Origin: a bacterium
Lineage (GTDB): Bacteria > Zhuqueibacterota > Zhuqueibacteria > Residuimicrobiales > Krinioviventaceae
Length of the DNA: 64,000 nucleotides
Direction of reading: 5' to 3'
Assembly: GCA_963693055.1 (NCBI GenBank)
Contig: OY843751.1
Location: 5,760,001-5,824,000 of the forward strand
The first letter of the stretch is position 1. Each line of letters starts with the position of its first letter. The position numbers and the translations under genes are program-made. This document shows, piece by piece, positions 568 through 64,000 of the stretch. The notes below the pieces were generated by a model. That model ran no database searches. It worked only from the letters and a program-made list of their open reading frames with translations, and was not told the origin of the DNA.

Positions 568-650
568 GAATCACCCCTCTGGTTTTATAAAAAAAACAAT
601 ACACCCTGATTAAAATTAGGTAATAAAAAAAGATAATGCAATATAAAATT

Positions 651-685
651 AAAAAAAGGAACCCCGGGGAAGGGTTCCTTTTTTT
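651..685. terminator. Intrinsic terminator after the 857-aa DUF3160 gene (symmetric A/T flanks)
   Basis: aaaaaaaggaaccc-N7-gggttccttttttt perfect inverted repeat. Confidence 0.75.
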
Positions 686-716
686 GGGCCAAGGGACAGC
701 TTGGAAGGGAGGGTAT

Positions 717-3290
717 TTATTTCAAAAGTGTCATTTTTTTGGTAGAAGTAAAGTTACCTGACACGATTTTGTAAAAGTATATTCCGCTGGCAAAGTTCTC
801 TGAATTCCACACTACCTGATATCTACCTGCGGTTTTATTGCCATTAACCAGAACCTGTATTTCTCGTCCCAGCAGATCGTACACAGACAGCTTTACATGA
901 CCACCTGCGGCAATCGAATAGTGTATTGTTGTTTGCGGGTTGAACGGGTTTGGGTAATTATCTTCAAGGCTAAATTGCATTGGTACTGCCTCCTGCTCAT
1001 TACCAATATCCGTCAGCACTACAGCCGGAAGCTCTCGCCCCTGCTGCATTGCATTTCCGGATTCATCAGCCAGGAAAATATTTACCCAGTCGGGTCGGTC
1101 CGGCACATTACCAGTTTCTACCGATTCTTTCCACTCTTCGTCAGTCAATCGCTTAAAATCTTTGGTAATTTGCTGATAATACGACATGACCGGCCCCACA
1201 AAGATCATTGTTTCGTATTCATTCGTAGGACAAGGTGCAGCAAAGAAACCAAGCTGAAACTTGCCTACTGAAACATGCAACACATGACCCACGGGCGCTC
1301 CCCCTTGATCGGTGGGTTGTGTGTGCACATCGGCAATAACATGGTCAATTAATGCCGGATCTTCCCGTTCGTAATACAAATCTGCATACCAACCGGTAAA
1401 CGGTGGTTGCCCGCTTCCGCCCCCTACAAACAACATGGATTGCAAGAATTCAATATCATTGTCATTAAACGCTTCATTGTTCAATTCTTTTAATGAAAGC
1501 GATTCTAATTTTACTATATTATTTCCCAGTCTTTCAAAATAGTCTAAAATATTGGGCATTATATAACTGTCTTGAGAATATCCTTCAAAAAAGGCTGCTG
1601 CCTTGTCTGCAAACAACTGAATGCCCCTGTAAAACTCGGGATACGGTTCAACAAATGAATGTGGAAAAGAACATCCTGTTGCACCGGTATAAGATTGCTT
1701 TGCATATAATAAATTATCGTGACGTAACTGCGCCCATGATGCCAGCTGCGTATTCAGCTTTAACTGATGCCATGCTGCTGACTTCATAAACTCGGGATAT
1801 GTTTCAAGATCCTGAGTAGGATTTATGGTTCGTATGGTGTTCAGCCAGACATTATATAATGATTTTTCCCAATAAGAGGCGTCATAACTTTCAACCAGAT
1901 ATCTCAAACTTGCCAAGTTCTGTGCATAGTTGTATGTTTCCAACTCTTCTTTTAAAAGGGGCAGGGTATTATCATTGCCCAGTACAAACATTGCATCCAG
2001 AGGGGAAGGTAATGGGCGCCATACCTTGGCCCCATTGAAAACAATGCGGTCAAAGACAACGTTACCAAGTACATAGGAATCAATAATAAACCTCTGCCCC
2101 ATCAATCTATAGGATACCGGTAATACACCGGGCTCGTCACTGTAGGGATCCATCATCATGATAGATGATAAAATTTTCTGTCCATATTCATCAGAACCTA
2201 ACAACTTTTCCTGAAACGCAGCCAGACTTGCACTATCCGCCAGGGATTCAACGGTAATATTGTTATCGTAACATACCTGGGCCAGTTCAGCAGGTGTCAT
2301 GTTATCACTTTCACCTACAAAAAAAGTGATAATCTTGTCTATCTCTTCCTGTTGCTCCCAAACATTTGCACTTTCCATCAATTCATTCATCAAGAGCGAT
2401 GCACGCGCCATACGCTGCACTTCATGCCATTCCCACTCTTTCTCAAAAGGATTCACTGGCGGTGGTGTCAGCCAAAAATCAATACGACCCAGCCACATCA
2501 TGGCCTTGAAATAGTCTTCCAGTGTTCTTGACTCTCCATCTTTCCAGTACGCTTTTGTATAGTGTCCACGTACTGTAAATTGACTAAAATCAATCTGGCG
2601 TGTTCTTTCCTCAAAAGTAAAAAGGGACATGGATGCCGGTTGTTCGGCTTGTATTGCCTGCCAAACATCATCAAAATTGTCTACAAAGTCAGACTGGGCT
2701 TGCTGGGCCTCCCCCCTTAATAATGAGAGGGCCATGGTAATATAAAGATCAACATCACCCAGCTCATTATCAAACCCTGCATTCGCATATTTGCTCAAAA
2801 GATCCGGCATCCGCTCATACATCTTTTCCAACTGGATAGCCAATGAAGGCTCCAGCAATTCAATTTCAAGGTCCATCAAAATTCTATCATATGAAGAATG
2901 CAACGCCTGCAAAATTGCATCTGTAGTAACAAAAACCGGCATATCTTTGATATAAATATCATGGAAAGCCTGGCCAATTGCACTAAAATCCAGACGCTCA
3001 GTTACCATAAAATGATTATTCATTAACAATTGTATTTCATCTGCTGTCAACTCGTATTTTTCTATCACCGAATCCAGATAGGCAGCAGATTCGATCGAAT
3101 GCTCTGTATTCAATTGTTTATAATATGTATTCTGTATGGGATATTCTGAAGACAATGCATCAACAGACATGTTTTCGGTAGATTTTAGATAATCCTGATA
3201 GGCATCAAAACTAAAATTTTCCTGACTCCACATTAGCGACGGAATAATAAAACATACAACAAGAACAATTTTCAATATATATATTTTCAT
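717..3290 (-). CDS. DUF3160-domain secreted protein with C-terminal T9SS type A-like (FlgD Ig-like) sorting domain
   Basis: Signal peptide; DUF3160 motifs FSQFTVRGHYT, YFKAMMWLGR, LASWAQLRHDNLLYAKQ, IADVHT, GPVMSYY; tail NYPNPFNPQTTIHY...VYDLLGREI...SGIYFY...KKMTLLK. Confidence 0.85.
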   Translation of the reverse strand: MKIYILKIVLVVCFIIPSLMWSQENFSFDAYQDYLKSTENMSVDALSSEYPIQNTYYKQLNTEHSIESAAYLDSVIEKYELTADEIQLLMNNHFMVTERLDFSAIGQAFHDIYIKDMPVFVTTDAILQALHSSYDRILMDLEIELLEPSLAIQLEKMYERMPDLLSKYANAGFDNELGDVDLYITMALSLLRGEAQQAQSDFVDNFDDVWQAIQAEQPASMSLFTFEERTRQIDFSQFTVRGHYTKAYWKDGESRTLEDYFKAMMWLGRIDFWLTPPPVNPFEKEWEWHEVQRMARASLLMNELMESANVWEQQEEIDKIITFFVGESDNMTPAELAQVCYDNNITVESLADSASLAAFQEKLLGSDEYGQKILSSIMMMDPYSDEPGVLPVSYRLMGQRFIIDSYVLGNVVFDRIVFNGAKVWRPLPSPLDAMFVLGNDNTLPLLKEELETYNYAQNLASLRYLVESYDASYWEKSLYNVWLNTIRTINPTQDLETYPEFMKSAAWHQLKLNTQLASWAQLRHDNLLYAKQSYTGATGCSFPHSFVEPYPEFYRGIQLFADKAAAFFEGYSQDSYIMPNILDYFERLGNNIVKLESLSLKELNNEAFNDNDIEFLQSMLFVGGGSGQPPFTGWYADLYYEREDPALIDHVIADVHTQPTDQGGAPVGHVLHVSVGKFQLGFFAAPCPTNEYETMIFVGPVMSYYQQITKDFKRLTDEEWKESVETGNVPDRPDWVNIFLADESGNAMQQGRELPAVVLTDIGNEQEAVPMQFSLEDNYPNPFNPQTTIHYSIAAGGHVKLSVYDLLGREIQVLVNGNKTAGRYQVVWNSENFASGIYFYKIVSGNFTSTKKMTLLK

Positions 3291-30400: not shown

Positions 30401-32869
30401 ACGGGCAATACGGTAGCTGGACTGGTTCAACATTCTTGTATCGAGCGCGTCTGGTTCGTTGTAAAGTTCTGCTTTTTCCGTGCCCTTGTATGAATAGGTC
30501 AGTCCTAAACAATAGAGGATTACCTGCTGCTCGGGATAATCTTTGACCAGTTGCTCATATTCAGTAACCGCATCATCAATTTTCCGGAGATAGTACAAGC
30601 ACTCTATATATCCACGGTGCGCATGCAAATTAGTGGTGTCCATCTCCTTGGCGCGTTGATAGCGCAACAATGCCAGACTGAACTCTTGTGCAGACTTTAA
30701 CTCATCTCCGGAATCCAACAGCGCCTTTAACAACCGATTCCAGGCTATTTCTGAAAGATCTTTACGATTGCTGTTGTAACGATTTACCAACTGCTCAAGT
30801 AATGAAAAGGCACGCAGGTTCTCGCCCATCATCAGCAAAGACTCTGCAATAGATAAATTGGCAGTAAAAACTTCCTCTACCAGATCGCCAAATAACGATT
30901 CTACCATTTCATATTCCTGAATTGCCGAGGCATAATCCCCCGCGTTAAACAGGATTTTACCAATACGAAGTTGTGCCGCTGCCGCTAGCAGTGGAAACTG
31001 AGCATATTGCCCAACAATCTCACGATACCGGCTGATCAGATCAAGCTCATTGTTGGCATCTGTTACCAGTAAATCCAGAATGCGATCACGGGCGGGAACC
31101 ATCCAGTCACGTTGTTCCGGATATTTTTGAACGACCTGCAAGTATGCCTGTATAACTTCATCCTGTGTAGCAAACCGGTTGAACACGTCTCCTATTTTCA
31201 ATTGGGCTTCCGCGCAATAAAAGTTCTGATCCGGAAACGTTTCCAATACCTGTTCATATGCCTTAAACGCCTGCGCGTCTTGTTTTATCTGGTAGAACAG
31301 ATCGCCCAGCACTATATATGCGGCAGACATGGGTTCGGCTTCCTGCTTGTATTTTTCAAGAATGGCATCCAACTCGGGTTTTAGCAGTTCCAGCCTCTTT
31401 TGCCCTGATCTTACGTCCCTGGCCTTTAACCCCAATTTTAACATTTCAGCATAGGCCGCCAGTGTTTTTCGTTCAGGAAAATTCTTTAACAAGATTTCCA
31501 GATATAAATTCGCCTGCTCAGGATAGTCGAGCAATTTAAAACAAACTGCTATTTCATACAGCGTTTGCGGAGAAACATCGGTAGCTGTTCCAAAATAGTC
31601 AATAACTCTTTTAAACGCCAGTTGACGGTCCCACAAAAGTAACCGCTGCTGCTTGGTCATAGATTGCGGGTCCCAGTCTAAAAACAACGGGCCAAGAGTC
31701 AAACGCGTCATTTCAGGAGACTGTGCATAAATGGAATCTGCCAGTTGATACTGTGCAGAAGGATTGTCAACACGCGGTATATACCCGGTTGACGGGAAAG
31801 ACCAAATATCGAGGTTGCCGCCCCGGTCAGAGGTAAAATATATCCTGTCGTTAGAGCCGGTATAAGGCTGCATTACCTGTTCACCACCGGAAGTGAGCGG
31901 CATGGCATATGATGCCATTTTCAAATTAAAAGACTCGCTCAATACCTGCAACATGGGATCACTGACAAACATTAATTCAATAGGTGATTTAAAAATCTGG
32001 GCTTCCCAAACGGCAGCGCGGTCCGTAGGCGTTAACGAGCCGTCTTTATTGGTATCAAACTCGTTCCGTAAAAAAACAACCTGCGTGGCTTCTTTGGTCC
32101 AGCTCGGGAACCCGTCAATGGCCGGTCCTTTAGTCAACTGATATGTGGGATATTCACGCGGGTCCCAAAGTAAGGTATCTTGGCCTGTGGGTTTTGGGCC
32201 CTTGAGATTGATAATAAAAATATCACCATTATTTTCCGGACCGTCTCTGAAAGAAGTAAAGGCTATCATTTGCAGGTCAGAACTCCACATGGGGTGGGTA
32301 CCACCCTTGTAGGTCAATTGTAATTTGACGTCTGTATGCTCATTATAAAACCAAAGTTCTTCACTGCCACTACGGTCAGAGACCCAACAAATTTTTTTAG
32401 AATCCGGAGACACGGTAGGATATCCGTCATACCCCATATAATCGGTAAACCGCTCAGGGTCTCCTTTGGGATAAAGCCTGCCCTTGATCTCGCGCAGATG
32501 CACCATCCAGATATCGCCCGCGGCATCACTGCGCTGTGAAACAAATACAATCGTCCGGCTGTCAGGATACCACACCGGATAATAATCGTCTGCTTTATGG
32601 AACGTGACCTGAATGGACCTTCCGCCTGCAGTGCTGCGGATCCAGATATCAAAATTATCAGACTGGCGCGATACATAGGCCATCCATTTGCCGTCAGGAG
32701 AAATACGTGCAGACAAGTCAATATCGGGGTGGGTGGTTACCTGCTGATAATCCAGTTTTCTATTTTCTGGCGTTTGCGCAAAGCTGAACGAACTTGACAA
32801 AAACGACACTGTCAAGACAAGTGTTAGGAATATGTGTTTGATCCTAAATTTCATTATTTTCCTGACCAT
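24425..32869 (-). CDS. Giant exported TolB-like (PD40) beta-propeller + TPR + tandem CHAT-domain protein (likely start at Met6, nt 32854)
   Basis: Signal peptide; PD40 repeats (SPDGKWMAYVS, WYPDSRTIVFVS, FTSDRGGNLDIW); many TPRs; C-terminal CHAT with FSCHG and MSACETG; an earlier degenerate CHAT copy. Confidence 0.88.
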   Translation of the reverse strand: MVRKIMKFRIKHIFLTLVLTVSFLSSSFSFAQTPENRKLDYQQVTTHPDIDLSARISPDGKWMAYVSRQSDNFDIWIRSTAGGRSIQVTFHKADDYYPVWYPDSRTIVFVSQRSDAAGDIWMVHLREIKGRLYPKGDPERFTDYMGYDGYPTVSPDSKKICWVSDRSGSEELWFYNEHTDVKLQLTYKGGTHPMWSSDLQMIAFTSFRDGPENNGDIFIINLKGPKPTGQDTLLWDPREYPTYQLTKGPAIDGFPSWTKEATQVVFLRNEFDTNKDGSLTPTDRAAVWEAQIFKSPIELMFVSDPMLQVLSESFNLKMASYAMPLTSGGEQVMQPYTGSNDRIYFTSDRGGNLDIWSFPSTGYIPRVDNPSAQYQLADSIYAQSPEMTRLTLGPLFLDWDPQSMTKQQRLLLWDRQLAFKRVIDYFGTATDVSPQTLYEIAVCFKLLDYPEQANLYLEILLKNFPERKTLAAYAEMLKLGLKARDVRSGQKRLELLKPELDAILEKYKQEAEPMSAAYIVLGDLFYQIKQDAQAFKAYEQVLETFPDQNFYCAEAQLKIGDVFNRFATQDEVIQAYLQVVQKYPEQRDWMVPARDRILDLLVTDANNELDLISRYREIVGQYAQFPLLAAAAQLRIGKILFNAGDYASAIQEYEMVESLFGDLVEEVFTANLSIAESLLMMGENLRAFSLLEQLVNRYNSNRKDLSEIAWNRLLKALLDSGDELKSAQEFSLALLRYQRAKEMDTTNLHAHRGYIECLYYLRKIDDAVTEYEQLVKDYPEQQVILYCLGLTYSYKGTEKAELYNEPDALDTRMLNQSSYRIARALALDYTMVQPYLTLSYNYEMMEQAEARERAKPKPFYIRLWNTLRTPFDYVYDIVTFAKVEPKRGYYERAIHELTKAIGLNDAEVDPDLEANLALNLANNYYNLGEYGYAKAYEYYHIKLKYDSTFYDKQREALIYERMGHCSYKVEDVVGGEKYLLRAIQLYTELEDEGHVLLNLSRLALLYQDTGLSEFAVEYFQKVADIYKRKNMYDNLMRSYRSIALNYLILEEPQDAIYYAKQALELLQSGKVKEIKQDPSRVKVGLLGLHVPVPFVNLNNMLPMAALRFTTEDESALVYTILGSSYSYEKNYKEAITNLDKKMVLFKKQDDKASQATLLNNIGYLYFLNGDYENAWGSFSESLKLCKDKKLLRGILLNSSNLARIVMAMNAAILEDQLDYTQVKDQFLQYQNDAAENINDALDRIQDEEFRYVKIKIEMYRYLADFSLIHFDEQEDLKSDIESNLFIFENGTYAQTYLEEALRTAKAYELLEEECSIEYDLGKLFYKLGNADESYAHLQNARRMAIRNAYYDMLWRIDTHMGDLLSMMPRDVKVKYSIQKDPYEYFIEAIDVLQAHPAKITGANAATLRTTYQKPYRRVIRYMVEKNDLNGALAMSEQMRAKLYLDMVSSENIDLRKERHKIYYGNAKFLQRTINELEISLLQMRNRFDIPYADIIEKRKELDSYKQEYETLLSDARLEVPELETLVRVNPVTCEMLQKKIRPGEALLYFTELEDQLLTWLVTKNQINYIGYQLSRHELNRFADQVFTAFKTGVDEIPDLSGINLFAVLDQAQSPVKHLVVVPPNELLLLPWSAMLYRNYPDDMDITTSTSLTDYYYSYDRRKIQGQRIFFASRDLSSQVLKDEGYTVILPMTSQEQNSFSAQGQPLGRSDVIYLQVQGEWNEIDPARSRMGFRIKQSSLAVFSSIDLYAMNLNAGLVQLSFEHDIPFRKFSQPFIAWERAFGYAGVPSMLVSLWPLPPESEKEFLSVYYKFLQDFPAAEALNMTRNHYAQADSSFRFWAGYQLYGFGGMSRDEEEQYAQEGFEGQVRRGHSAYELGEWEDAIRMYESAQRMAERQNDSESIELLQQRILECAVNGGFWSKAIETQLTQIENAQATNDVAAEANGYSNLAFFYTQNKEFDKGIEAKARFTRLAEQYGLKEEEAHSLRETGLIYERGGQYKLALSLFTEALDKFRSIENREGEAQCLRDVGRVNFFYLDNYYDALVVQRQALDIFKTLGITPDFVDALHNLGNTNEKMANYKRALAYQQQALEYAVQLDDVRLQGLSRQYLANVFWKMGSYQSALEQQEQALAIFESLQDNKLLQVANATRGLIALSFGDPEKAQTFELKALELATALGDRKDEATIYKNIGMIQRAQGRDDLALSSFEQAAEIDSLINSKRGMAYDLRNIASIQIGMGVNSPSRQHLNRSLQISQDIQDWRNTTQCYLELGRLEMLDVRPDSARVFFGKSAELAENLYMPEIQWRAHKYLAETWQGVNADSVSAQYYKAIDVIESMRAMIKVEEFASGFVDDKLDVYGALIDLHLEQGQVEQAFDLVERSKSRSFLDMLGSKEIAFNTQNRDLLAKEDSLDTKLKETQTRLFYLRSKNDSLAQDEMNQLEDLVKQIEQERDSLLVRLQQSDPELSDMLSVNPLTVEQLKEKLPARVGILEFYLYKDHLYSWLLTRVGIDYRKIEIDPEQFEKDVFELRQVLDRQLSVSNWSQSLYEKLIGPWDTELYKTDHLVLVPQGSLHYLPFAVLQNKDQVYFGLSHSLSIAPSATVMAYCLDKGDSLHITNRDSMSVLAFGNPDLGSKKWDLPFASREVNSLNRYFTHVNMLLNKRATETNLYSFSEYPPIMVFSCHGEYDDANPLLSALLLSPDSTNDGKLEAEEIFSLDLNAYIVAMSACETGLGTIRGGDEVVGLSRSFIYAGTSSLLSSLWKVDDLATAVLVKRFFRYLSEGKSRADALRMAQKIVHDEINPYPSFWAAFTLTGDWR

Positions 32870-52408: not shown

Positions 52409-54187
52409 TTATTCAACTATTCTTATGAATATCTCTCCCAACTTTTTTTTATTTGAAGAAACAATTATCGGATAAATCTGTTTATCTCTGTCTATGGCAT
52501 AACTGTCGAGTAAATTCTCATTCAACGCAATATTCAGATTCCTGTCTTCTCCATCTCCATTTCCAACAAAGCCTTTAAAATTTACTTGCAACCCTGTTTT
52601 CTGTGCATCGCTGGTTTCTACATTTACTATACGAATAATCTGATTCTTATGAAATTCTATTGTTTCATTATTTCTAACATTCAAAGTATCTTGTCCGCAT
52701 TCAAGCTTTATACTCATCAAATCCGGCTTTTTTAAAACAATACGAAAGCTGGCAAGTATTTCATTATATTGCTCTAAACGAATACTATATACCCAGCCCT
52801 CTCCATCTTCTGAATATGCTTTTATCAAATCCGTAGATGTGTCAACCCAAACACCCCGGTCCTGAGTTTTTAATGATTTATCCTGTGGAACAAATCCATA
52901 AACATTCACCCTGACCGAAGGATCTTGTTGTGTTGAAGGTACTGTATCTATAATCTTAATTCTGTCACCGGGCACCAGTTTAATGTCTTTATCTCTATCA
53001 AACACTTGTACATCATCGTTCACATTCATTACCAAATAATTGAATGATTCTTTAGGTATCGCTTGACTATCTTTAATATCCAGGTATATCTCACCACAAA
53101 GAAATTTATCTTTTCGAACAATGGCTTTGGTAGAATTGTTTATAACAATCTTTGACCGGTAATCATTCACGGTACCATAATTTAATATGTCAACCGATAG
53201 ACCGCGCTCATAGTTTGATTCTATATGGTTAATTTCGACTTTGTCACCTTTATTAATAGTCAAAGATTTTCCAACAGGCACAATATGTGTTTGCTGTTCA
53301 TTGATGGTAACAATAACAAAATATAATTCAGGATATTCCAGATAGATACGTGGCACTTCGGGTACTATATTAAATATCTTCATAAATTCATTAATTATCC
53401 ATACCTGATGTCGCACCTTTAACTCTATGTCTGATATAGACTTGGAAGACTCGATCCCAAACGCAGGAATACCAAAATTTGATAGCGCGTAATAAGTTGC
53501 CGAAGCACGCTGCTCGGCATGACGGGTATGGTCTGAAAAAGTATTATGGTTATTAAAAGCAAACTGATATTGAGGATTTTCAATTTTTTTGTTAACCTGG
53601 GTAATTACCGTTTTGGCAATCTCTTCTAAATTCAGTGTCTCAGTTGAATCATTGCTTGAAAACACATCCGCGTCTGCAATTATCGATTGACCATAACGTA
53701 ATGGATTTTCAATATCAGAAATCCAAGTATCCCGATAAAACCCTGATCCTTCATGTAAATTCAACAAAACATCTGCTTCTGCTATAAGTGACTTTAAAAT
53801 TTCTACAATTTGCTCTTCATAATTTTCACCATTTTTTTGTTTGGTGAATTTACGGTTCATATCTCCATGATAGCCACGCTGGTCCCGAATTATAGTATTA
53901 AAATTAGCACGGGGTACCATAATAAGACTACCTCGCTCAAGGTTTATATCCACATAATGGTCAGCAGCAAGATAGCCTGTGGGCTCATTTCCTTGGATTC
54001 CACCAATAACAAGCATTGTATTATCGGGTATACGTCCCTTTATCCGATAAACATTCAACTCATAAGGTGTATTCTCAAAATAAGTTTCCTGCACAAAACG
54101 TTTTTCAACATCTTTGGAATAGACGTTGAAAAAACCAAGAAAAATGAATAAAACAAAAATAATATTTTTATTAATTATCATTATCAA
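52409..54187 (-). CDS. Csd4/Pgp1-like (M99, M14-fold) peptidoglycan D,L-carboxypeptidase
   Basis: Signal peptide; GGIQGNEP (Gln/Glu ligands), DMNRKF, LNLHEGSGFY, GQSII, GIESSK; repeated C-terminal beta domains (VNVYGFV / VNFKGFV). Confidence 0.75.
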   Translation of the reverse strand: MIMIINKNIIFVLFIFLGFFNVYSKDVEKRFVQETYFENTPYELNVYRIKGRIPDNTMLVIGGIQGNEPTGYLAADHYVDINLERGSLIMVPRANFNTIIRDQRGYHGDMNRKFTKQKNGENYEEQIVEILKSLIAEADVLLNLHEGSGFYRDTWISDIENPLRYGQSIIADADVFSSNDSTETLNLEEIAKTVITQVNKKIENPQYQFAFNNHNTFSDHTRHAEQRASATYYALSNFGIPAFGIESSKSISDIELKVRHQVWIINEFMKIFNIVPEVPRIYLEYPELYFVIVTINEQQTHIVPVGKSLTINKGDKVEINHIESNYERGLSVDILNYGTVNDYRSKIVINNSTKAIVRKDKFLCGEIYLDIKDSQAIPKESFNYLVMNVNDDVQVFDRDKDIKLVPGDRIKIIDTVPSTQQDPSVRVNVYGFVPQDKSLKTQDRGVWVDTSTDLIKAYSEDGEGWVYSIRLEQYNEILASFRIVLKKPDLMSIKLECGQDTLNVRNNETIEFHKNQIIRIVNVETSDAQKTGLQVNFKGFVGNGDGEDRNLNIALNENLLDSYAIDRDKQIYPIIVSSNKKKLGEIFIRIVE

Positions 54188-54857
54188 TCGATTTGATATT
54201 TTGATAGATGATTTGACCGTCAGTAGAATATACTCTTATAACAGCAAATTTTATGGAAAAATCCGGGGGATCAAGATTAAATTGCACTTTTTTGAAATAC
54301 TTGATCGCAAATGAATCACCCGTCTTGTAATTAATTGCATTAAACTGTTTATCAACTTTGCAACCTTGCGGAAAAGTTGAAACCCTTGCATCAGCATTCA
54401 TACTGTCCATAAACAGCACATGCAGATACCCTTCTGCTTGAGAATTATTTCCGGAATCATTAACAAGATCAAATCCAACTTGTAATTGGGTCTTACTATT
54501 GTTAACGCTAAAATCCCGAACATTAATAATCTTTTGATCAATTTCATCAAATGTGACAACAGGATTCTGTTTAGCTTGTACCTGGGGTGTTGATTTGACG
54601 GGTGGTTTTTGCTTTTTAGGTTCAACATGACCATATAAAAAAGCGTCTTTCTTCTGACTCTTTAGCGACAATACCTGATCTTTTAATTCAGTATTTTGTA
54701 CAGATAATTGCCATGTCAAAAAAACGAGTCCAACAAAGATTAGAAAGAAAAGGATGACACCAAACTTTAACAGTTGATAATACAAAAAAGGCAGATTGAT
54801 CTTTCGTATTTTGTAGGAACTGCGGATAAACAAAATTGTTAACAATTCATGTCGCAT
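54171..54857 (-). CDS. Bitopic membrane protein (TM, coiled coil, C-terminal beta domain), unknown function
   Basis: One TM, QNTELKDQVLSLK coil, Pro/Gln/Lys linker, beta-rich C-terminus; tightly packed between its neighbours. Confidence 0.65.
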   Translation of the reverse strand: MRHELLTILFIRSSYKIRKINLPFLYYQLLKFGVILFFLIFVGLVFLTWQLSVQNTELKDQVLSLKSQKKDAFLYGHVEPKKQKPPVKSTPQVQAKQNPVVTFDEIDQKIINVRDFSVNNSKTQLQVGFDLVNDSGNNSQAEGYLHVLFMDSMNADARVSTFPQGCKVDKQFNAINYKTGDSFAIKYFKKVQFNLDPPDFSIKFAVIRVYSTDGQIIYQNIKSIDNDN

Positions 54858-54862
54858 AAACT

Positions 54863-55825
54863 TTATTCACTGGTTGCTTTGTTCTCATTCCAAACTTCTC
54901 GAACTATTTTAAAAGAATCATTTTCTTTAATGATATACAGTTGCTTAATTCCTGAATCTTTGTAATTCTCTGTTGAATAATCTTGGTAAAAATTGGCTAC
55001 ATAGTTTACATCATCCTTGAAAATTTGAATGTTGTACAAATCAACAGCGATATCTTTATATTGCTTAAACAATCTGTTTTTATATGCTTTATAAGCATAA
55101 TAATTCATACCATCAAAGTGAAACTGCTTAGAATAGCAATCAATAAAGGTGCCAATGTTTTGATTTTCCCAGCTTTTCTTCCATTTTTGTAAAAAATTTA
55201 CTATCTCCAGCTTGTCAGCCTCAACAAAATTTTGATTTCTAAAATAAATTTCGTCTACTATGACAACCGGTGTCTGATCAATAGTAACATACTGAGAGAC
55301 ATCATTAAAATCGGTATTTTCAAGAACAACACAGCCTTTGGTGTCATTTGAATTCTGAATTCGCTCTGGCTCATCCGTTCCATGTATCCAAATACCATAA
55401 CCATTCTTTTTTTTCATTTTGTCAAAACCATTAGGATAATCGAGAACAAATGCACCAGCACCATAAATAGGAGCAAGATACTGCTTGTCTTTTTCATCCC
55501 GAATGAAATATATGCCTTCCGGTGTTTTCAAATCACCTACTACATTTTTATCACCACGGACTTTGCCGGTAGAACAGACATATTGTTTTTCAACAAACAA
55601 TGTTGAATCAACTGCTTTTAAAACCAAAAAAGATTGACTTCGTTTTTCTACAAGAAATAGATACTCACTGCTTTTATTACAATCCAAATGAAGAAATGGA
55701 AGCGGCGCATACAACTCGTTTTTATTAAAACGGGTACCATATTCAAAAGTTGCAGAATGTGCAGAAACAATTGATAATAAAACCAGTACTAAAACAAATA
55801 GATTCCTGTTACTCATTTTTCCCAA
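54863..55825 (-). CDS. YkuD (L,D-transpeptidase/carboxypeptidase) + NTF2-like domain, Csd6/Pgp2-like
   Basis: GDLKTPEGIY, LDYPN, GIWIHG...TKGCV (His/Cys); C-domain WKKSWE...YSKQF...FYQDY...GIKQLY...KIVRE. Confidence 0.85.
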   Translation of the reverse strand: MGKMSNRNLFVLVLVLLSIVSAHSATFEYGTRFNKNELYAPLPFLHLDCNKSSEYLFLVEKRSQSFLVLKAVDSTLFVEKQYVCSTGKVRGDKNVVGDLKTPEGIYFIRDEKDKQYLAPIYGAGAFVLDYPNGFDKMKKKNGYGIWIHGTDEPERIQNSNDTKGCVVLENTDFNDVSQYVTIDQTPVVIVDEIYFRNQNFVEADKLEIVNFLQKWKKSWENQNIGTFIDCYSKQFHFDGMNYYAYKAYKNRLFKQYKDIAVDLYNIQIFKDDVNYVANFYQDYSTENYKDSGIKQLYIIKENDSFKIVREVWNENKATSE

Positions 55826-56430: not shown

Positions 56431-58194
56431 CTACATTCCTTCAAATATTCTTAAACCCAATTCCATAAGCTGCTCGCTCTTGACATTAGATGGCGCACCA
56501 TCCATAAGCGAGGTTCCACTGGCTGTTTTGGGGAACGCAATTACATCACGAATCGACTGACCACCTGTCAAAATCATATTTAACCGGTCAAAACCAAAAG
56601 CAATACCACCATGTGGCGGAGCTCCATACTGCAATGCATCGAGCAAAAATCCAAATTTGCTTTGTGCTTCTTCTTCTGAAATGCCAAGTGCTTTGAACAT
56701 TTTGGATTGTATATCGGAATTAGAAATACGAATACTTCCTCCGGCAATTTCTAATCCGTTCATTATGAGGTCATAAGCACGGGCCCGCACATTACCAGGA
56801 TCCGTATCCATTTTACCCATATCCTCTTCAATGGGAGATGTAAACGGATGATGCAGAGCAACATAACGTTCTTCTTCGGGATTAAACTCTAACAATGGAA
56901 AATCAACAACCCATGCAAGTTTATATACATTATCAGGGATCAAATTATTATCTTTGGCCAGTTTTAATCTCAAATTGCCAAGAACCGGAAAGGCATCTTG
57001 CTTTGTATCTGCTACAAACAACAACAAATCTCCATCACCAGCGCCACACTCGGCCATAATGGCTTTTCGCTGTTCTTCGGTAAAGAATTTTGACAACGAG
57101 CTGTCCCAATCATCACCTTTAACTTTGATTGCTACAAGGCCTTTGGCGCCTTGTTCCTTGGTCCAGTCAGTTATATCATCAATTTGCTTGCGTGAAAAAG
57201 AAGCGCCACCAGGCATAGCAAGACCAGCAACAACATTACCGGCTTGTACAGTTTGAGTGAACACTTTGAATTCACAATCTTTAACCAGATCAGATATATT
57301 GTGTATTTCTAATCCAAAACGGAGATCAGGTCTGTCAATACCATAAGTTTCAATTGCTTCTTGATAAGGTATACGTTGAAAGGGTGCATCAACATCAACA
57401 TCAATAACGTCTTTCATAATTTTGACAACCAGACCTTCAACAATTTTAAAAATATCTTCTTCATCAATAAAAGACATTTCTACATCAATCTGAGTAAACT
57501 CGGGTTGGCGGTCTGCCCTAAAATCTTCATCTCTGAAACAACGTACAATTTGAAAATAGCGGTCATATCCTGAGACCATCAATAATTGCTTATATGTTTG
57601 CGGTGACTGAGGCAGCGCGTAAAAACGACCTTTCCATATTCTGCTTGGTACTAAAAAATCCCTGGCACCTTCGGGTGTACTTTTCATCAAAAAAGGTGTT
57701 TCAATCTCTACAAAATCATTTTCAGAAAAATAATTACGAACAATCTGAGCTGTTTTATGACGAACAAGCATTTTTTGCTGCATTTCAGGTCTACGCAAAT
57801 CCAAAAAGCGATATTTTAATCTCAAATCTTCAGACGCGTTGCTTTCACCACTAACAGGTATTGCCGGTGTTTCTGATACGTTCAATATTTCAATATCAGA
57901 AGCTATTAATTCAATTTCACCGGTTCTAAGTTTTTCATTAACCATACCGTCTGGTCTGTGCTCAATTATACCTTTAAATGCAACAACAAACTCACTTCTC
58001 AATTTTTTGGCTTCTTCATAAGCACTGGATGAAGGATTAATCTGGACTTGTGTTATACCCCAGCGATCCCTCAAATCGATAAAAATTAAACCACCATGAT
58101 CACGTCTTCTGTCAACCCATCCCATTAATATAGCTGATTCATCAACATTATTTTTTGTTAATTGCCCGCAATTATGTGTTCTTTTCCATTTCAT
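56431..58194 (-). CDS. aspS: Aspartate--tRNA ligase
   Basis: RTHNCG, FIDLRD, STPEGARDF, LPQSPQ, FRDEDFRADRQPEFTQ, GGSIRI, PPHGGIAFGFDR. Confidence 0.97.
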   Translation of the reverse strand: MKWKRTHNCGQLTKNNVDESAILMGWVDRRRDHGGLIFIDLRDRWGITQVQINPSSSAYEEAKKLRSEFVVAFKGIIEHRPDGMVNEKLRTGEIELIASDIEILNVSETPAIPVSGESNASEDLRLKYRFLDLRRPEMQQKMLVRHKTAQIVRNYFSENDFVEIETPFLMKSTPEGARDFLVPSRIWKGRFYALPQSPQTYKQLLMVSGYDRYFQIVRCFRDEDFRADRQPEFTQIDVEMSFIDEEDIFKIVEGLVVKIMKDVIDVDVDAPFQRIPYQEAIETYGIDRPDLRFGLEIHNISDLVKDCEFKVFTQTVQAGNVVAGLAMPGGASFSRKQIDDITDWTKEQGAKGLVAIKVKGDDWDSSLSKFFTEEQRKAIMAECGAGDGDLLLFVADTKQDAFPVLGNLRLKLAKDNNLIPDNVYKLAWVVDFPLLEFNPEEERYVALHHPFTSPIEEDMGKMDTDPGNVRARAYDLIMNGLEIAGGSIRISNSDIQSKMFKALGISEEEAQSKFGFLLDALQYGAPPHGGIAFGFDRLNMILTGGQSIRDVIAFPKTASGTSLMDGAPSNVKSEQLMELGLRIFEGM

Positions 58195-58226
58195 TTGCCG
58201 CTACCTTGTTAAAAAATTACAATGTT

Positions 58227-58258
58227 AAAAAAAACCGTCAGACGATTGTCTGACGGTT
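58227..58258 (-). terminator. Intrinsic terminator closing the 58314-63580 unit
   Basis: aaccgtcagac-gatt-gtctgacggtt 11-bp perfect stem with an A run (U tract on minus strand). Confidence 0.85.
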
Positions 58259-58313
58259 AAAGATAATACTCTTGTTACAAAAAATCAATCAAAAGAATTA
58301 TTAATTAAAGGTA

Positions 58314-60563
58314 TTAGTTTTTAAAATAAAATACCGGACCACCCATTAATACACGTTTATATTTAAAAGAGTTGGTCTGGTAAACCGCATACTTGGCTTC
58401 GAACCAAATGGTTCCGCTCCACAGATGCTGTTTTACAGTAACCATGCTTGACCATTTATCACCAAATCCAAATCTCCAGTCAAACAAAAAGTTTTTAAAA
58501 CCACTATCGGTAGTATAGCTCAAGCCCATTGAAAGGTAGTGTTGAGAATATTTGAATTCTTGTCCTCGTGGAGTAATAATTCTTCCATCTTCAATGGTGT
58601 TGCCTCGTTTTTCCCAAACTTTATAAAGTGAATAAGAGACTTCGTCCAGCTTTAATCTAAATCTGTTAATGGGAGCATCATCCTTTAATCCAAAACGGAG
58701 GCCGGCACCATTATATCTGTTAAAATAGCTGTACTTGAGGCCTTCTGTATCCATATCAAAATGATATATCTCTTTACCTAATCCGCTAATATCTCTGGGG
58801 AATGTCATTGGCAATTGAAAAGAAATGTTATAACCAATACTTTTCAGGTAACTGCTGTTTGGCATCCAGCCAAAAACTTCATTTATTGCATTATAGTCCC
58901 AACTTTTATTTAAAATAAATTGAATATTGTTGATTGCAAGTCTGGCATCGCCTTCATTCTTTTCAAAAAAGCGGTTGTCTAATTTATAGTCAACAAAGTT
59001 GATCAATGTTCTATTTGCGTAATTATACGGTCTGTAACTGACTCGAATGTCATCAACCAACCAGGTGATGGGCGGAACTTCATTAAAATTCCATTCAAAA
59101 TAATACGCCATGCTACCTGACCATACAAACGGATAATTAAATTCATCCTGGCCAAATTCAGTACCCAGTTTGAACCGCTGGTTCAATAAAGAAAATTGAA
59201 AATTCAACTCATCTACGCTCAATGTTACGGGATATGCATTTTCTGCTTTTGGAAAAGCATAAGATTCCATTGCCTCAACAACACCAATCTGACCTCCATC
59301 AACCTGTGCGGGCTCGATATGTTTTTGTCCGGGTCTAACAGTATTAGACAAAGGTACCAGACCAAACAGGGATGCAACATAATAGTTACCCAAATCATTA
59401 TGATTTTCATGTGATGACAATACCTGGAAATTGCTTGACTGTATGGAATACTCTATTCTGTCCAATTTATTGGTTTCGAGTTCCATATCATAATTCATGT
59501 ACAAGCGAGCGGAAACAAAACTGGCTTGTTCTTTATCTACTGCCGCTGAAACAGCAATATCAATAATCTTGTTGGCTATATCTGTAAAGTTGAGCTTTGT
59601 TTTACGTTCTAAACGCTGCATACGCAATTCGTCGTTTTGCAATACTGCCTGAGAACCATTGCGATAAACAGTAATCTCTTTGGAGTATTTTCCGGATGGG
59701 GTCTTTTTCAAGTTTACACCAAAACTCCATTTATCCGGCAAATTGTTTGGCATCTCTCCTTCTTCATCCCAGAAATATTGTTGAAAAATATATTTGGGCA
59801 ATGAAGGTTCTTTATTTGAAGAAATATCAATCTTGCTCAAATCATTAATAAATTGTTCTGCCGGCAATGTGTGAATTTTTACAAATTGATCACGTTCAAT
59901 GTAACCCACCTGAATGGCTTTAACCGCGGGTGAATTATCACGTCCGGTATTTGTATAAAGAATTTTGATAGCGTCAATAGAGTCAACCTTTGCTTCTACA
60001 TCAGCACTGATCTGCACAAGTACATCGAGAAGGGTATTAAACTCTTCAGCATTTTTACGCTTTGACCAGAGCCCCGCGTAATCGGAAGAGGTAATATCTT
60101 CTTCCAACTGGGTAATAGGTATTGAAATTGAAGAAGCTCTTCTGAATACCAAACCCGATGCTTGAATATAAGAATCGATAGCGCCCATATAGTTATCACT
60201 GGGAGCATTGATTGAATTCAAAAATCTTGAAATATCGATCTCGATGTTTGTTGGGGTATTATCATCTATATAGATCGATTCAATCTTTAAACGATTTTCC
60301 GTAGAGTTGTAATTAACCAAAATACCAACATTATCAATCAAGGTCATGGGACTTTCCCATGTGGCTCTCGACGCATCGTTGGGATCGTTAATCACCTCTC
60401 TTAATGTATTGATAAAGTCTTGAAACACCTGAGGATTCGCTTCATAATCCCTTGGAGTGGTTATGTAAGTTCGGATGTTATCAGCTACTTCATTGGCCTG
60501 TGAAAAAACGACAGAAACGAACACCAATAAAACCAAAATCAAACACGTTAATTTACCTTTCAT
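58314..60563 (-). CDS. Exported hypothetical protein; probable C-terminal outer-membrane beta-barrel
   Basis: Signal peptide; C-terminal half has alternating aromatic/hydrophobic strands (FLFDWRFGF, IWFEAKY, GPVFYF). Confidence 0.6.
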   Translation of the reverse strand: MKGKLTCLILVLLVFVSVVFSQANEVADNIRTYITTPRDYEANPQVFQDFINTLREVINDPNDASRATWESPMTLIDNVGILVNYNSTENRLKIESIYIDDNTPTNIEIDISRFLNSINAPSDNYMGAIDSYIQASGLVFRRASSISIPITQLEEDITSSDYAGLWSKRKNAEEFNTLLDVLVQISADVEAKVDSIDAIKILYTNTGRDNSPAVKAIQVGYIERDQFVKIHTLPAEQFINDLSKIDISSNKEPSLPKYIFQQYFWDEEGEMPNNLPDKWSFGVNLKKTPSGKYSKEITVYRNGSQAVLQNDELRMQRLERKTKLNFTDIANKIIDIAVSAAVDKEQASFVSARLYMNYDMELETNKLDRIEYSIQSSNFQVLSSHENHNDLGNYYVASLFGLVPLSNTVRPGQKHIEPAQVDGGQIGVVEAMESYAFPKAENAYPVTLSVDELNFQFSLLNQRFKLGTEFGQDEFNYPFVWSGSMAYYFEWNFNEVPPITWLVDDIRVSYRPYNYANRTLINFVDYKLDNRFFEKNEGDARLAINNIQFILNKSWDYNAINEVFGWMPNSSYLKSIGYNISFQLPMTFPRDISGLGKEIYHFDMDTEGLKYSYFNRYNGAGLRFGLKDDAPINRFRLKLDEVSYSLYKVWEKRGNTIEDGRIITPRGQEFKYSQHYLSMGLSYTTDSGFKNFLFDWRFGFGDKWSSMVTVKQHLWSGTIWFEAKYAVYQTNSFKYKRVLMGGPVFYFKN

Positions 60564-60600
60564 GACATCTCCGAATTATTTCTATTCTTTATTCTATTTC

Positions 60601-62475
60601 TCAATCTACACCTAATTGACGAATGATTAATTGTCTATTCTGACTGTTTAAAGAGATAGGTTGTTTTGAATATGGTACATTTACTCTTAAACCATCTATA
60701 TTCACAATAGAACCTGGTGAAAACTTTGTATTGAAAACAAACTGTGTTTCTGAAGTTGCCGGATTAGCATATGATGCCTTAAATGGCCGCACATTAAATT
60801 CCAATATAGACTTTATGGGGTCACCAAAAAAGTCATGCAAATAAAAAGTGACAAATGTTGTAGAAGCTACATAGTCATTGTCTTTTATATTGATGCGATA
60901 ATCATCTGGAACTTGAGCGACATAAAACTGAATTTGCTTATAATGGTTCGTATTTGTATTAACACGCAAATTCAGGTTACGAACATCTGCATCTATAGAA
61001 TATTTCACATTACCCAATTGATTTCTGGGTGATTGATTTCCATTAACAACACAATTCCTGATATGATTTGCATTTACATTCTGCAAGGAATAGAAAAAGT
61101 TCACAGGTCTGGATTCATAAACAATTGGATATTTTGCCTGATTTGCCGGAGAATCTTTGAGATAACTCTCCTCATCCGGATACTTTTTAATAAACCTTTC
61201 AAACAATTCTTTTTCATCGGTAAACTGGTTACCCGGATCATCCAACTCACTTTGAAACATGGGACGAATTGGCGGCCAAACCTGGAACCGGAAGGGTATA
61301 ACTTCAATCAACCAGTTACGTTCATCAACAGACATACCTGACCTTGCAACCAAACGTATGGGTACCTGCAGACTCGAAAATCCATTCAAATTTCGGTTTG
61401 TAGTAATGGGAAATTCAAGATCAAAAACCTGATAATTGTTTGTTGGTGTTACAAAGATATTGCTCTTAAGTGCTTCTCTATTTCCCAGCTGTATATTGGT
61501 TATAGACTCATTATTTAACACTTCCTTGTTGTCAATATACAAGGTTATGTATTCAACCGGAAAGTTTGCCGAAATTACCTGCTTAAACGGCATACCTACA
61601 GGGGTATTTAATTTCTCAACATAATTTTCCGGGGGATGTAATATTTTAAACTTGTTAACAATCTCTTCGGAAACTGTAAATACATTGGGTTCCTGACCCG
61701 GATTGTTCAGATTTAATCTTTTACGTTTCTTTTCGGTTATAACATCAAGATAATTTCCACGGGCTCCATGTAAAGAATCCGGAATTAAATATTTTACTGC
61801 AAATGTAAATTTATCAATACCAAATGTGCTTGCCAGATTGCCTGCATCAAAATCTTTCCAAGTTGAATCTGAGAGATTAATCTCTACACTTTTGATCATA
61901 GATGAATCAGGCAACACATCGTTACCTCTTCGCAGGTATTTGTAATTTATTGTCAAGCCGCTGCCATCTTTATTTAATGGTATTTCACTAAAGATCAACA
62001 ACTTTATACCCTGATCTAATAGATAACCAAAATTTCTATCCTGCTTTTTAACTAATCGTTTTGAGAATCCATCTTTTTCAATAATATGTACAAAGTAATA
62101 ATTCCCTGAATCAAATTGAATATAGACATTACTATCCTGAGAGGGTCCCATATATTGAATATCAAAATTATTTGATGTTTTAGAATAATTTATCTGGTAT
62201 CTACCGGCACCCTGCTCAAAATTAGCAGAAGTAAAACTCAGAGTGTCGCCAATTTGACGGGCAAGTCTATATTCAAATTCGGCATCTGTTTGCTCAGTCG
62301 TCCAGGAATATTGCAAAAAATCATTGGCCATACCGCCAATATCCATTACATTATTTTCTCTGAACAATTCCTGAGCATTGTGCGGATCAAGTCTATTCGG
62401 GTCAACAAATTTAAGGTAGACAGACATTAAAAATGTCAACACATACAAGAGTAATACTATTCGATTCCTATCCAT
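60601..62475 (-). CDS. Single-pass membrane protein with large periplasmic beta-rich domain; putative GldM/PorM-like motor subunit
   Basis: N-terminal MDRNRIVLLLYVLTFLMSVYLK (R-x7-Y as in the GldM TM); remainder beta-sandwich-like. Confidence 0.5.
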   Translation of the reverse strand: MDRNRIVLLLYVLTFLMSVYLKFVDPNRLDPHNAQELFRENNVMDIGGMANDFLQYSWTTEQTDAEFEYRLARQIGDTLSFTSANFEQGAGRYQINYSKTSNNFDIQYMGPSQDSNVYIQFDSGNYYFVHIIEKDGFSKRLVKKQDRNFGYLLDQGIKLLIFSEIPLNKDGSGLTINYKYLRRGNDVLPDSSMIKSVEINLSDSTWKDFDAGNLASTFGIDKFTFAVKYLIPDSLHGARGNYLDVITEKKRKRLNLNNPGQEPNVFTVSEEIVNKFKILHPPENYVEKLNTPVGMPFKQVISANFPVEYITLYIDNKEVLNNESITNIQLGNREALKSNIFVTPTNNYQVFDLEFPITTNRNLNGFSSLQVPIRLVARSGMSVDERNWLIEVIPFRFQVWPPIRPMFQSELDDPGNQFTDEKELFERFIKKYPDEESYLKDSPANQAKYPIVYESRPVNFFYSLQNVNANHIRNCVVNGNQSPRNQLGNVKYSIDADVRNLNLRVNTNTNHYKQIQFYVAQVPDDYRINIKDNDYVASTTFVTFYLHDFFGDPIKSILEFNVRPFKASYANPATSETQFVFNTKFSPGSIVNIDGLRVNVPYSKQPISLNSQNRQLIIRQLGVD

Positions 62476-62494
62476 AATCTATATTACCACTTTT

Positions 62495-63580
62495 TTACTT
62501 TTCAACAATTAAATTAACTTTTTTCAAGGCATCAAGAACACCCTGTGCGATCATTTCTGCATCAACCTTTTCCGCTACAACTTCTTTATCTTTTAAAGCC
62601 TGAGCCAGCTTTTCAGCAAACGCTTCATCAATTTTCAATTCTTTTTCTTCTTCATGGGTTTTAAATTTATCCGGAAACTTGTATCCCAAATAAAAAGCGG
62701 CAGCTTCGGTAAAACCACCGGCAACAACCAAAAAGGTCAACATGTTAAAACCCCACTTTGAAAAATTCTGAAATTGATCGGGATTAAAGGCGTGAAAGAT
62801 ATCATATAACTGCCAGTGAAAGTAAACACTCATATCAAGCAATTGGTTTTTTTCAAAATAGATAATACCTACAATTGCAAAAATCATGGTAATAATACCC
62901 AAATTCATAATCTGGGTAGGAGCTGAATATAAAAAGTTTTCTCTAAATTGCTTGTCTTTTTCCATTAAATTATTATTTCTAAATTGTACCAGCTTTCGAA
63001 TAGGAATCACAAAGATACCCCAAAAGAATGCCGCAATTGCCACAACTTGAAACGTTATTCCAATTACTGTTTGAAAGAGATACACTTCGGCAGTTGGGTT
63101 CATAACCTCTGTTAATATGCGAATTCTTTCACCAAAACCGGAAACAAGTATCACCAGCATGAGGAAAAGAACCAGCAAGATCACTTTAACAACAGCGGTA
63201 ACATCTACAATCTTGCCCATTTCACCAAGATTATACTCACTTGTTAAACCATCGATGATATTTTTCATATCCAGCTTGACCTGATCGCTGCCATGAGCTT
63301 CAAGCAATTTTCGAATTTGAACTTCATTTAACAGGTCAGCTTTTTCCGGGGATTTTAAAAAAGGCACCAAATATTTAACAAGAAACCAAAAACCGGTAAA
63401 AAAGCCTCTTTTTTGATGATCTTCTCGTTGTTTTTGATAAATATTTTCTTCAAATATAGCAACAACCTCTTTTGCAATAGCTGGATTATGAAAATATGCC
63501 TTTTTCCTGGTTAATTTCAATAAATTGTCTTTAGAAAGATCATACTTTATCAAACCAAACATCGAGTTTAATTTACCCAT
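62495..63580 (-). CDS. Polytopic membrane protein; putative GldL/PorL-like motor subunit
   Basis: Last two TMs NFLYSAPTQIMNLG and AGGFTEAAAFYLGYKFP align with GldL NFAYGMGAAVVIVG and IGLLTEALIFALSAFEP (recalled sequence); charged helical C-tail. Confidence 0.55.
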   Translation of the reverse strand: MGKLNSMFGLIKYDLSKDNLLKLTRKKAYFHNPAIAKEVVAIFEENIYQKQREDHQKRGFFTGFWFLVKYLVPFLKSPEKADLLNEVQIRKLLEAHGSDQVKLDMKNIIDGLTSEYNLGEMGKIVDVTAVVKVILLVLFLMLVILVSGFGERIRILTEVMNPTAEVYLFQTVIGITFQVVAIAAFFWGIFVIPIRKLVQFRNNNLMEKDKQFRENFLYSAPTQIMNLGIITMIFAIVGIIYFEKNQLLDMSVYFHWQLYDIFHAFNPDQFQNFSKWGFNMLTFLVVAGGFTEAAAFYLGYKFPDKFKTHEEEKELKIDEAFAEKLAQALKDKEVVAEKVDAEMIAQGVLDALKKVNLIVEK

Positions 63581-63727
63581 TTTTATACCTCATATAGACA
63601 GTTTGTTGTATCAGTGAACATAATATTTTTAAAAAGGATTATACTTCCCAGCCCAATTTTTTAAAGTAATTTTTTTATATTTGAAATGCAACTAAAAGTT
63701 TCTGTATTTACAGTACCAAAAAAAATT

Positions 63728-63757
63728 AAGCGGCACCAAATAAATTCAATGCCGCTT
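63728..63757 (-). terminator. Possible terminator of the atp operon
   Basis: aagcggca-N14-tgccgctt with a nearby A run (U tract on minus strand); loop is long. Confidence 0.45.
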
Positions 63758-63799
63758 TATACGTATCAATTATTATACCAAAATAAAACAAGAAGCCTA

Positions 63800-64000
63800 T
63801 TATCTCGAAGCAACCTCCAAACGATTCAAAGCTCGCATCAGAGAGGCATTTGCTCTTGCCATGCTGGTTTCAGCTTGTTTTTCATCAAGGCGTTTTTGAG
63901 CACGTTCACGTGATTTTTGAGCACGTTCAACATCAATATCACCGGAAGCTTCTGCAGTTTCTGCCAGTATGGTCATTTTATTATCTGCAACTTCAACAAA
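63800..64000 (-). CDS. atpC: F0F1 ATP synthase subunit epsilon, 3' part
   Basis: Not in the ORF track; my translation FVEVADNKMTILAETAEASGDIDVERAQKSRERAQKRL...RANASLMRALNRLEVASR*. Confidence 0.93.
   Translation of the reverse strand, partial: FVEVADNKMTILAETAEASGDIDVERAQKSRERAQKRLDEKQAETSMARANASLMRALNRLEVASR

Follow-up and report, generated by a model that had tools for sequence, protein, structure and literature searches.

What kind of machine is encoded by the three unnamed genes that separate atpC from aspS in a bacterium of the family Krinioviventaceae? The genes belong to a window of 64,000 nucleotides (contig OY843751.1 of assembly GCA_963693055.1, positions 5,760,001 to 5,824,000 of the forward strand; window coordinates are counted from its first letter), and their source genome is a single contig of 6.54 Mb that is 100 percent complete by markers. 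An earlier note on this window had read them as a divergent rotary ion motor of the GldLM (PorLM) type. On balance, the evidence tips towards a lineage-specific ion motor of this type with an outer-membrane partner of its own; no search proved a kinship to GldLM. The unit consists of three co-oriented open reading frames (ORFs) on the minus strand, of 361, 624 and 749 amino acids and with gaps of 19 and 37 bp, and is closed by a perfect terminator-like hairpin, just as had been described:

62495..63580, minus strand: gene 1 (P0001, 361 amino acids), four-helix inner-membrane protein, predicted GldL-like ring subunit.
60601..62475, minus strand: gene 2 (P0002, 624 amino acids), one N-terminal membrane helix followed by about 600 residues of beta-rich periplasmic domains, predicted GldM-like axle subunit.
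58314..60563, minus strand: gene 3 (P0003, 749 amino acids), predicted outer-membrane beta-barrel.
58233..58258, minus strand: intrinsic terminator-like hairpin that closes the cassette, 11 perfect pairs (6 G-C) and a T run.
63728..63757, minus strand: terminator-like hairpin between atpC and gene 1, 13 pairs and a T run, from a consensus scan only.
63638..63665, minus strand: weak sigma-70-like promoter candidate 5' of gene 1, with 10 of 12 matches.

The profiles of genes 1, 2 and 3 match the same five of 167 genomes of the KSB1 phylum, from uncultivated bacteria in 2 of 100 genera (one marginal gene-1 row at E 0.007 was left out of this count), and the order atpC-g1-g2-g3-aspS, which the earlier note expected to recur, is kept in all five carriers. 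Between genera, the cassette proteins of the carriers are only 22-41 percent identical. Two metagenome contigs also show atpC, gene 1 and gene 2 before the contig ends. Genes 1 to 3 are a real, conserved three-gene unit. The unit does lie directly after atpC, but the 219-bp spacing between atpC and gene 1 contains the second hairpin, and the cassette, while adjoining the atp operon, is therefore probably transcribed on its own. The promoter candidate comes from a scan in which 69 sites were observed against 51.5 expected in shuffles, and Rfam gave no match within positions 57000-64000 of the window.

Is there anything in the first two proteins that points to a motor? From hydropathy and an AlphaFold2 model (monomer, pLDDT 74.6, alignment of 13 rows), gene 1 is predicted to have four transmembrane helices, preceded by a cytoplasmic stretch of 120 residues at the N terminus, rather than the two membrane segments initially noticed. 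Charge counts place both termini and the loop between helices 2 and 3 in the cytoplasm, and in this arrangement the last two helices, which correspond to those segments, do have the topology of GldL with a cytoplasmic C terminus. Four relatives of gene 1 are present in a 90-percent collection; a profile search of 1.84 billion representatives at E 0.001 returned 10 proteins, adding a form of 327 amino acids, four of 230-248 amino acids and one fragment, while no relatives were found in viral contigs. The distant homologues of 230-248 amino acids have a short loop between helices 3 and 4, as in GldL. In the 13 aligned rows, 14 positions after Met1 are invariant, seven in helix 3, six in helix 4 and one in helix 2, so that the invariant share is 0/25 in helix 1 and 1/30 in helix 2. 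The membrane helices of interest are:

62855..62926, minus strand: gene 1 helix 3, residues 219-242, invariant at 7 of its 24 positions and, judged by eye, the likely counterpart of the first GldL helix.
62672..62743, minus strand: fourth helix of gene 1 (residues 280-303), in which G288, E292 (codon 62705-62707), A295, F296, G299 and P303 are invariant.
62404..62469, minus strand: membrane helix of gene 2 (residues 3-24), in which R3, I6, L10, Y11, F15, L16, Y20, K22 and F23 are invariant (8 rows).

The residues N215, Y218 and E292 of gene 1 and R3 and Y11 of gene 2 are found at the positions first reported for them, and the three that were expected to form the motor core proved to be conserved. 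E292 and its G-x3-E-x3-F setting (G at -4, F at +4) are invariant in 13 of 13 rows, and G288, E292, F296, G299 and P303 roughly share one face of the helix. R3 and Y11, which form an R-x7-Y motif, are kept in 8 of 8 gene-2 rows, in none of which is there an Asp or Glu at residues 4-24; around this helix 10 of 24 positions are invariant, compared with 10 of 221 in the next stretch. The last two helices of gene 1 and the membrane helix of gene 2 are thus the best-conserved parts of their proteins. A ring-and-axle motor is favoured because invariance of this kind, with 13 of the 14 gene-1 positions in helices 3 and 4 together with the gene-2 helix, would not be expected of a mere anchor; in the signal region of gene 3, for comparison, 2 of 21 positions are invariant.

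These residues have counterparts in the GldLM motor. According to the available text of two reports, E49 of GldL and Y17 of GldM are invariant, R9 of GldM is highly conserved and functional, and together they make up the functional core (bioRxiv 10.1101/2020.05.11.089193; PMC8986121). In 7sau_A, a solved chain of GldM, R9 and Y17 are spaced like R3 and Y11; G-x3-E-x3-F recurs in 7sax_C, a solved GldL chain, as well as in P0008, a protein from KSB1 that scores above the cut-off of GldL_N. As in GldL and GldM (PorL and PorM), the gene for the ring precedes that for the axle; as in GldL, gene 1 has a Glu in its last membrane helix within G-x3-E-x3-F, followed by a cytoplasmic tail; and, as in GldM, gene 2 has a single helix with an Arg and a Tyr eight residues apart and a long periplasmic part with beta domains. 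An acidic residue follows the helix-ending proline in 11 of 13 gene-1 rows, two positions further on than E59 in GldL (PMC8986121). Gene 1 further differs from GldL in its two extra helices, its 120-residue N-terminal domain and a periplasmic loop of 37 residues.

Another point of reference is a short gldL-gldM pair in another genome of the same family (L045:3-5137, G009:C585), which shares G-x3-E-x3-F, R-x7-Y and the L-then-M order with genes 1 and 2; in contrast, its GldL is a two-helix protein of 128 amino acids over the Pfam cut-off, the pair is preceded by porP and a type B cargo gene, and it has no significant similarity to genes 1 and 2. In that locus the 128-residue gldL, over the PF22827 cut-off, and a gldM-like start follow directly behind porP/sprF and type B (CHU_C) cargo genes. 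It contains the only clear GldL in the 167 genomes; the GC content falls over the pair, and contamination of the bin is possible.

Several results weigh against a GldLM-type motor. Neither genes 1 to 3 nor their alignments gave a significant match to Pfam, NCBIfam, PADLOC or the PDB sequences. The GldL models PF22827 and TIGR03513 gave no match at gene 1, and with GldL_N gene 1 was unmatched even at E 10 in four carrier genomes; the GldM models TIGR03517 and PF12081 gave no match at gene 2, but both also missed the GldM-like protein P0009, and TIGR03517 is therefore regarded as insensitive. Comparisons by hhalign, in which the templates were single KSB1 sequences, gave probabilities of 0.4 and 0.5 percent for the GldL-like and GldM-like proteins. 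The comparison with GldL and GldM that the earlier note called for thus had a divided outcome, since the best hhalign segments coincide with the motif helices of genes 1 and 2, as expected, but neither these nor the profile and fold searches reached significance. With the gene-1 monomer, Foldseek returned no match at E 0.001, the other fold-search rows listed being generic helical bundles with no GldL among them, and residues 205-361 gave no usable match in the ESM Atlas. The model of gene 2 is weak (pLDDT 54.5), with residues 25-63 under pLDDT 50, strands from residue 65 and an unresolved C-terminal part; strands occupy the place after the membrane helix where a helical D1 bundle would be expected, and among the rows listed in its fold search there was no GldM, only generic immunoglobulin (Ig) folds, which correspond to the following feature:

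61285..61665, minus strand: immunoglobulin-like domain of gene 2, residues 271-397, Z about 8 and root-mean-square deviation about 3 over about 100 residues, generic Ig folds.

For both genes, these fold-search nulls do not demonstrate that the folds are different.

The first helix of the presumed pair also departs from GldL. Y218, which had been equated with Tyr13 of GldL, is located in the loop or at the point where the helix begins, and one of the 13 aligned rows has a Tyr there, so that the original register of this helix has to be considered wrong. A better register, set by eye, is shifted by seven residues and brings the invariant M225 to GldL position 13; the positions of K27 and H30 are then occupied by I239 and F242 (Ile, and mostly Phe), and gene 1 is left without equivalents of Tyr13, Lys27 and His30. 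The GldL of S. wenxiniae has Ile at the Tyr13 position, and loss of this residue is therefore tolerated in a solved GldL, as far as the accessible part of the source goes (bioRxiv 10.1101/2022.01.28.478170). In addition, part of the invariance must be attributed to kinship, given that the family is small (13 rows for gene 1 and 8 for gene 2) and mostly of one clade. Membership of genes 1 and 2 in the GldL and GldM families is not established, and in view of the HMM, hhalign and fold searches the claim is limited to a pair that works like GldLM.

Could the resemblance then be a coincidence? Genes 1 and 2 would in that case form some other membrane complex, such as a transporter, a channel or a signalling or assembly scaffold, with a structural Glu-Arg pair buried in the membrane and gene 3 unrelated or loosely linked to it; the fact that no motor gave a significant match, in sequence or in structure, the four helices in place of two, the absence of a D1 bundle from the model and the shortness of the motifs all favour such a view. 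The frequency of the motifs in this genome argues in the opposite direction. Of 1260 ORFs whose only hydrophobic stretch is N-terminal, 3 have R-x7-Y in an uncharged helix, and gene 2 is the only one of these three with an adjacent, co-oriented upstream gene that has an intramembrane Glu; G-x3-E-x3-F in an otherwise uncharged segment occurs in 3 of 851 multi-helix ORFs. Under a looser joint rule, an R-x7-Y gene lies downstream of 3 among 140 membrane genes with a lone Glu. One of the two other pairs was inspected and proved to be a response-regulator gene pair, and the joint motif and gene order are unique among the inspected candidates of the genome. These counts bound chance only loosely because the motifs were picked after the genes had been seen. 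Considering also that the pattern of conservation agrees with an axle helix that is enclosed, and that the L-then-M order is that of the KSB1 gldL-gldM pair, a coincidental resemblance appears unlikely. A GldLM-like pair at 2.32 Mb of the genome was rejected, as it consists of a response regulator and an exported protein; among the weak matches, L026, L030-L032 and L058 were unrelated on inspection, and L027, L028 and L044 were dropped as marginal.

A different question is whether genes 1 and 2 could belong to the other known class of 5:2 motors, with a four-helix ring subunit and a single-helix partner as in MotAB, ExbBD, TolQR or ZorAB. Four helices with the strongest conservation in the last two are reminiscent of the architecture of MotA, and an ExbB/ExbD-type cassette fills the same chromosomal slot in relatives of the carriers, as is detailed below; MotAB, ExbBD, TolQR and AglRQS likewise combine a multi-helix ring subunit with a periplasmic partner of one helix. 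In contrast with these motors, the conserved acid of the cassette is on the ring subunit, the partner helix carries Arg and Tyr and no Asp, and a TonB-like third protein is lacking. The MotAB/ExbBD/TolQR/ZorAB class uses a conserved Asp in the partner helix, which is at odds with a gene-2 helix free of Asp and Glu in 8 of 8 rows. Neither PF01618 (MotA_ExbB) nor PF02472 (ExbD) nor any PADLOC model matched genes 1 and 2, and this possibility is considered very remote. For MotAB, the accessible text of PMC9389320 mentions D22 in MotB.

If the genes do encode a motor of the GldLM type, several copies of gene 1, probably five, would surround two gene-2 helices through their third and fourth helices, the first two lying on the outside. 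E292 would be protonated and released in turn while paired with R3, Y11 might help in the transfer of the proton, and the gene-2 dimer would turn or stroke as a result. The chain of gene-2 beta domains would span the periplasm and act on the product of gene 3, a barrel that may thereby be energised for the import, export or release of some substrate. The strict co-occurrence of the three genes makes gene 3 the candidate load of the motor. Its N terminus is a signal-peptide-like hydrophobic stretch in which 2 of 21 positions are invariant; 71 of 309 positions are invariant in residues 441-749, against 28 of 418 in the variable N-terminal half (4 rows). Residues 451-749 have an aromatic share of 18-26 percent and alternating strands, and the protein ends in an aromatic strand with a conserved PVF. 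An outer-membrane beta-barrel, as first suggested for this gene, is thus a plausible prediction. The neighbours of gene 3 in the Atlas, at 0.90-0.91, are unnamed clusters of Bacteroidota and Ignavibacteriota, one of them auto-named DUF3078, with a recognition value below the reliable threshold.

Since gldK or gldN could not be recognised at the locus, and a gene with a tail typical for a type IX secretion system (T9SS) had been noticed in the same window, it had also been proposed that the cassette might power a T9SS-like export. The tail gene, at 717..3290, is confirmed (TIGR04183, 46.7 bits; cut-off 23), and it belongs to a tandem of two DUF3160-like genes at positions 1-3290, of which the complete one has the type A tail. 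Like the hosts of GldLM, the genome encodes outer-membrane parts of the T9SS: the search suggested by the earlier note found SprA (661.7 bits; L046, G000:C1:5668714-5673048), PorV (310.9 bits, with a large expansion to 22 matches over the NF033709 cut-off) and two PorU over the cut-off, in tandem at about 6252-6260 kb. At least 150 type A cargo tails and a SprE/PorW candidate of 98.9 bits, below the cut-off, are present as well, but GldK was not found over its cut-off, and neither were GldL, GldM and GldN. SprA has matches in 167 of 167 genomes of the phylum, 163 of them over the cut-off, and over-cut-off matches across the same genomes number 1 for GldL_N, 0 for GldM_1st and 0 for GldN, no positive control having given a match in the GldM and GldN searches. 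In the accessible text of PMC10994853, substrate release from the translocon of F. johnsoniae depends on the motor; given this, and that GldL, GldM and GldN are almost undetectable, an energiser of the T9SS seems to be missing phylum-wide.

Genes 1 and 2 could be that missing motor, or an accessory one, in which case gene 3 would take the place of the GldK/GldN hub and transmit force to the SprA translocon; such a role would agree with the dependence on a motor and with the inventory just given. Nevertheless, SprA is universal and the cassette is present in 5 of 167 genomes, so that the other 162 manage without it or with forms that escape recognition, and the cassette is about 145 kb from sprA, with no T9SS genes around it. 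A T9SS motor of this kind is accordingly quite unlikely, and a general T9SS motor is unlikely too, except if orthologues have diverged beyond detection. The load is probably something other than general type IX secretion. The cassette also differs from the gldKLMN operon as a whole, in that it is a three-gene unit between atpC and aspS with a predicted barrel gene and no recognisable gldK or gldN, and from GldLM in its rarity and its undetectable sequence or fold similarity. Our literature search, which left most subscription papers outside, found no report on type IX secretion in KSB1 or Calditrichota and nothing related for Marinimicrobia with T9SS; likewise, with most subscription papers and supplements outside the search, no account of such a three-gene cassette was found. 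Near sprA, a trio of tonB/tolA-like, exbB and exbD genes lies about 4-6 kb upstream (L047:5650-7654; G000:C1 about 5678.6-5680.7 kb), beyond two membrane-protein genes, which resemble lptF and lptG.

What, then, occupied the site before the cassette? In relatives, atpC and aspS either lie next to each other, as the coordinates show for 7 genomes at the order level, or are about 11 kb apart. Among 13 slot regions, picked partly by this spacing, nine contain a full cassette resembling the Agl-Glt systems, one has its first two genes and then the contig end, one is empty and two have other genes. The content of the Agl-Glt-like cassette is two TPR genes, a small exported gene, ExbB, two ExbD and a GltG/AgmX-like TonB gene:

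L059:1646-12086 (G004); also L060-L066, L068 and L069: Agl-Glt-like cassette in the slot of relatives.
L072:5823-13744 (G000:C1 about 895.8-903.7 kb): paralogous Agl-Glt-like cassette in the genome of the window.

Of the 167 genomes, 126 have an orthologue of the slot ExbB (E below 1e-68); it is absent from all five carriers, which keep only the paralogous cassette elsewhere, its ExbB being 36-40 percent identical to the atpC-linked one. In an AspS tree of 13 rows, from which family members lacking both cassettes were absent, the carriers group in a single clade (98/99), and G004, the sister of that clade (89/88), bears the Agl-Glt-like cassette. Taken together, the slot contents, the distribution of ExbB and the AspS tree suggest that a known kind of 5:2 motor cassette formerly stood in the slot. 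The Agl-Glt-like cassette is, in its own right, a candidate for a phylum-wide envelope motor, and the first of its TPR proteins has a weak match to PorW/SprE (E 9.5e-9), far below the cut-off.

From these data it could be proposed that the cassette is a non-homologous replacement that does the same job as the ancestral one with a different motor. This idea is compatible with a GldLM-type motor, to which it adds a claim on the load, and it draws on the nine full and one partial Agl-Glt-like cassettes behind atpC, on the absence of the slot ExbB from the carriers and on the cassette of their sister. However, 11 of 19 genomes of the family have neither cassette, and the slot may be particularly prone to gain and loss, which also tells against the motor reading given above; in seven genomes atpC is next to aspS, so that a loss requires no replacement. 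Since it would be a single evolutionary event and so many genomes of the family lack both cassettes, replacement is only suggestive, and, with the paralogous cassette retained in the carriers, a takeover of the same job is held to be improbable.

Two other regions of the window deserve mention. Downstream of aspS in all carriers there is an M99 carboxypeptidase together with an L,D-transpeptidase with a Cds6-like domain (52409-55825 in the window), which are presumably cell-shape genes of the Csd4/Csd6 type. At positions 24425-32869 a protein of 2814 amino acids combines a TolB-like propeller, many TPRs and two CHAT-like protease regions, as judged from partial NCBIfam matches.

The only function known to us for GldLM is to drive type IX secretion and gliding, through GldK and GldN. 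A broader proposal, which is possible but doubtful at present, is that GldLM-type motors are a wider modular family in which, within this KSB1 clade, a four-helix variant of GldL and a beta-only variant of GldM would drive a dedicated barrel without the GldK/GldN hub, having displaced an ExbB/ExbD/GltG-type cassette, so that two unrelated 5:2 classes would be exchangeable energisers of the outer membrane. In a phylum where SprA is universal while GldL, GldM and GldN are almost undetectable, it becomes a concrete question how type IX secretion is powered beyond the Bacteroidota; the rarity of the cassette prevents it from being the general solution. As a minimal unit of three genes, with the same charged core and a barrel of its own, it would offer a tractable test of a hub-free motor.

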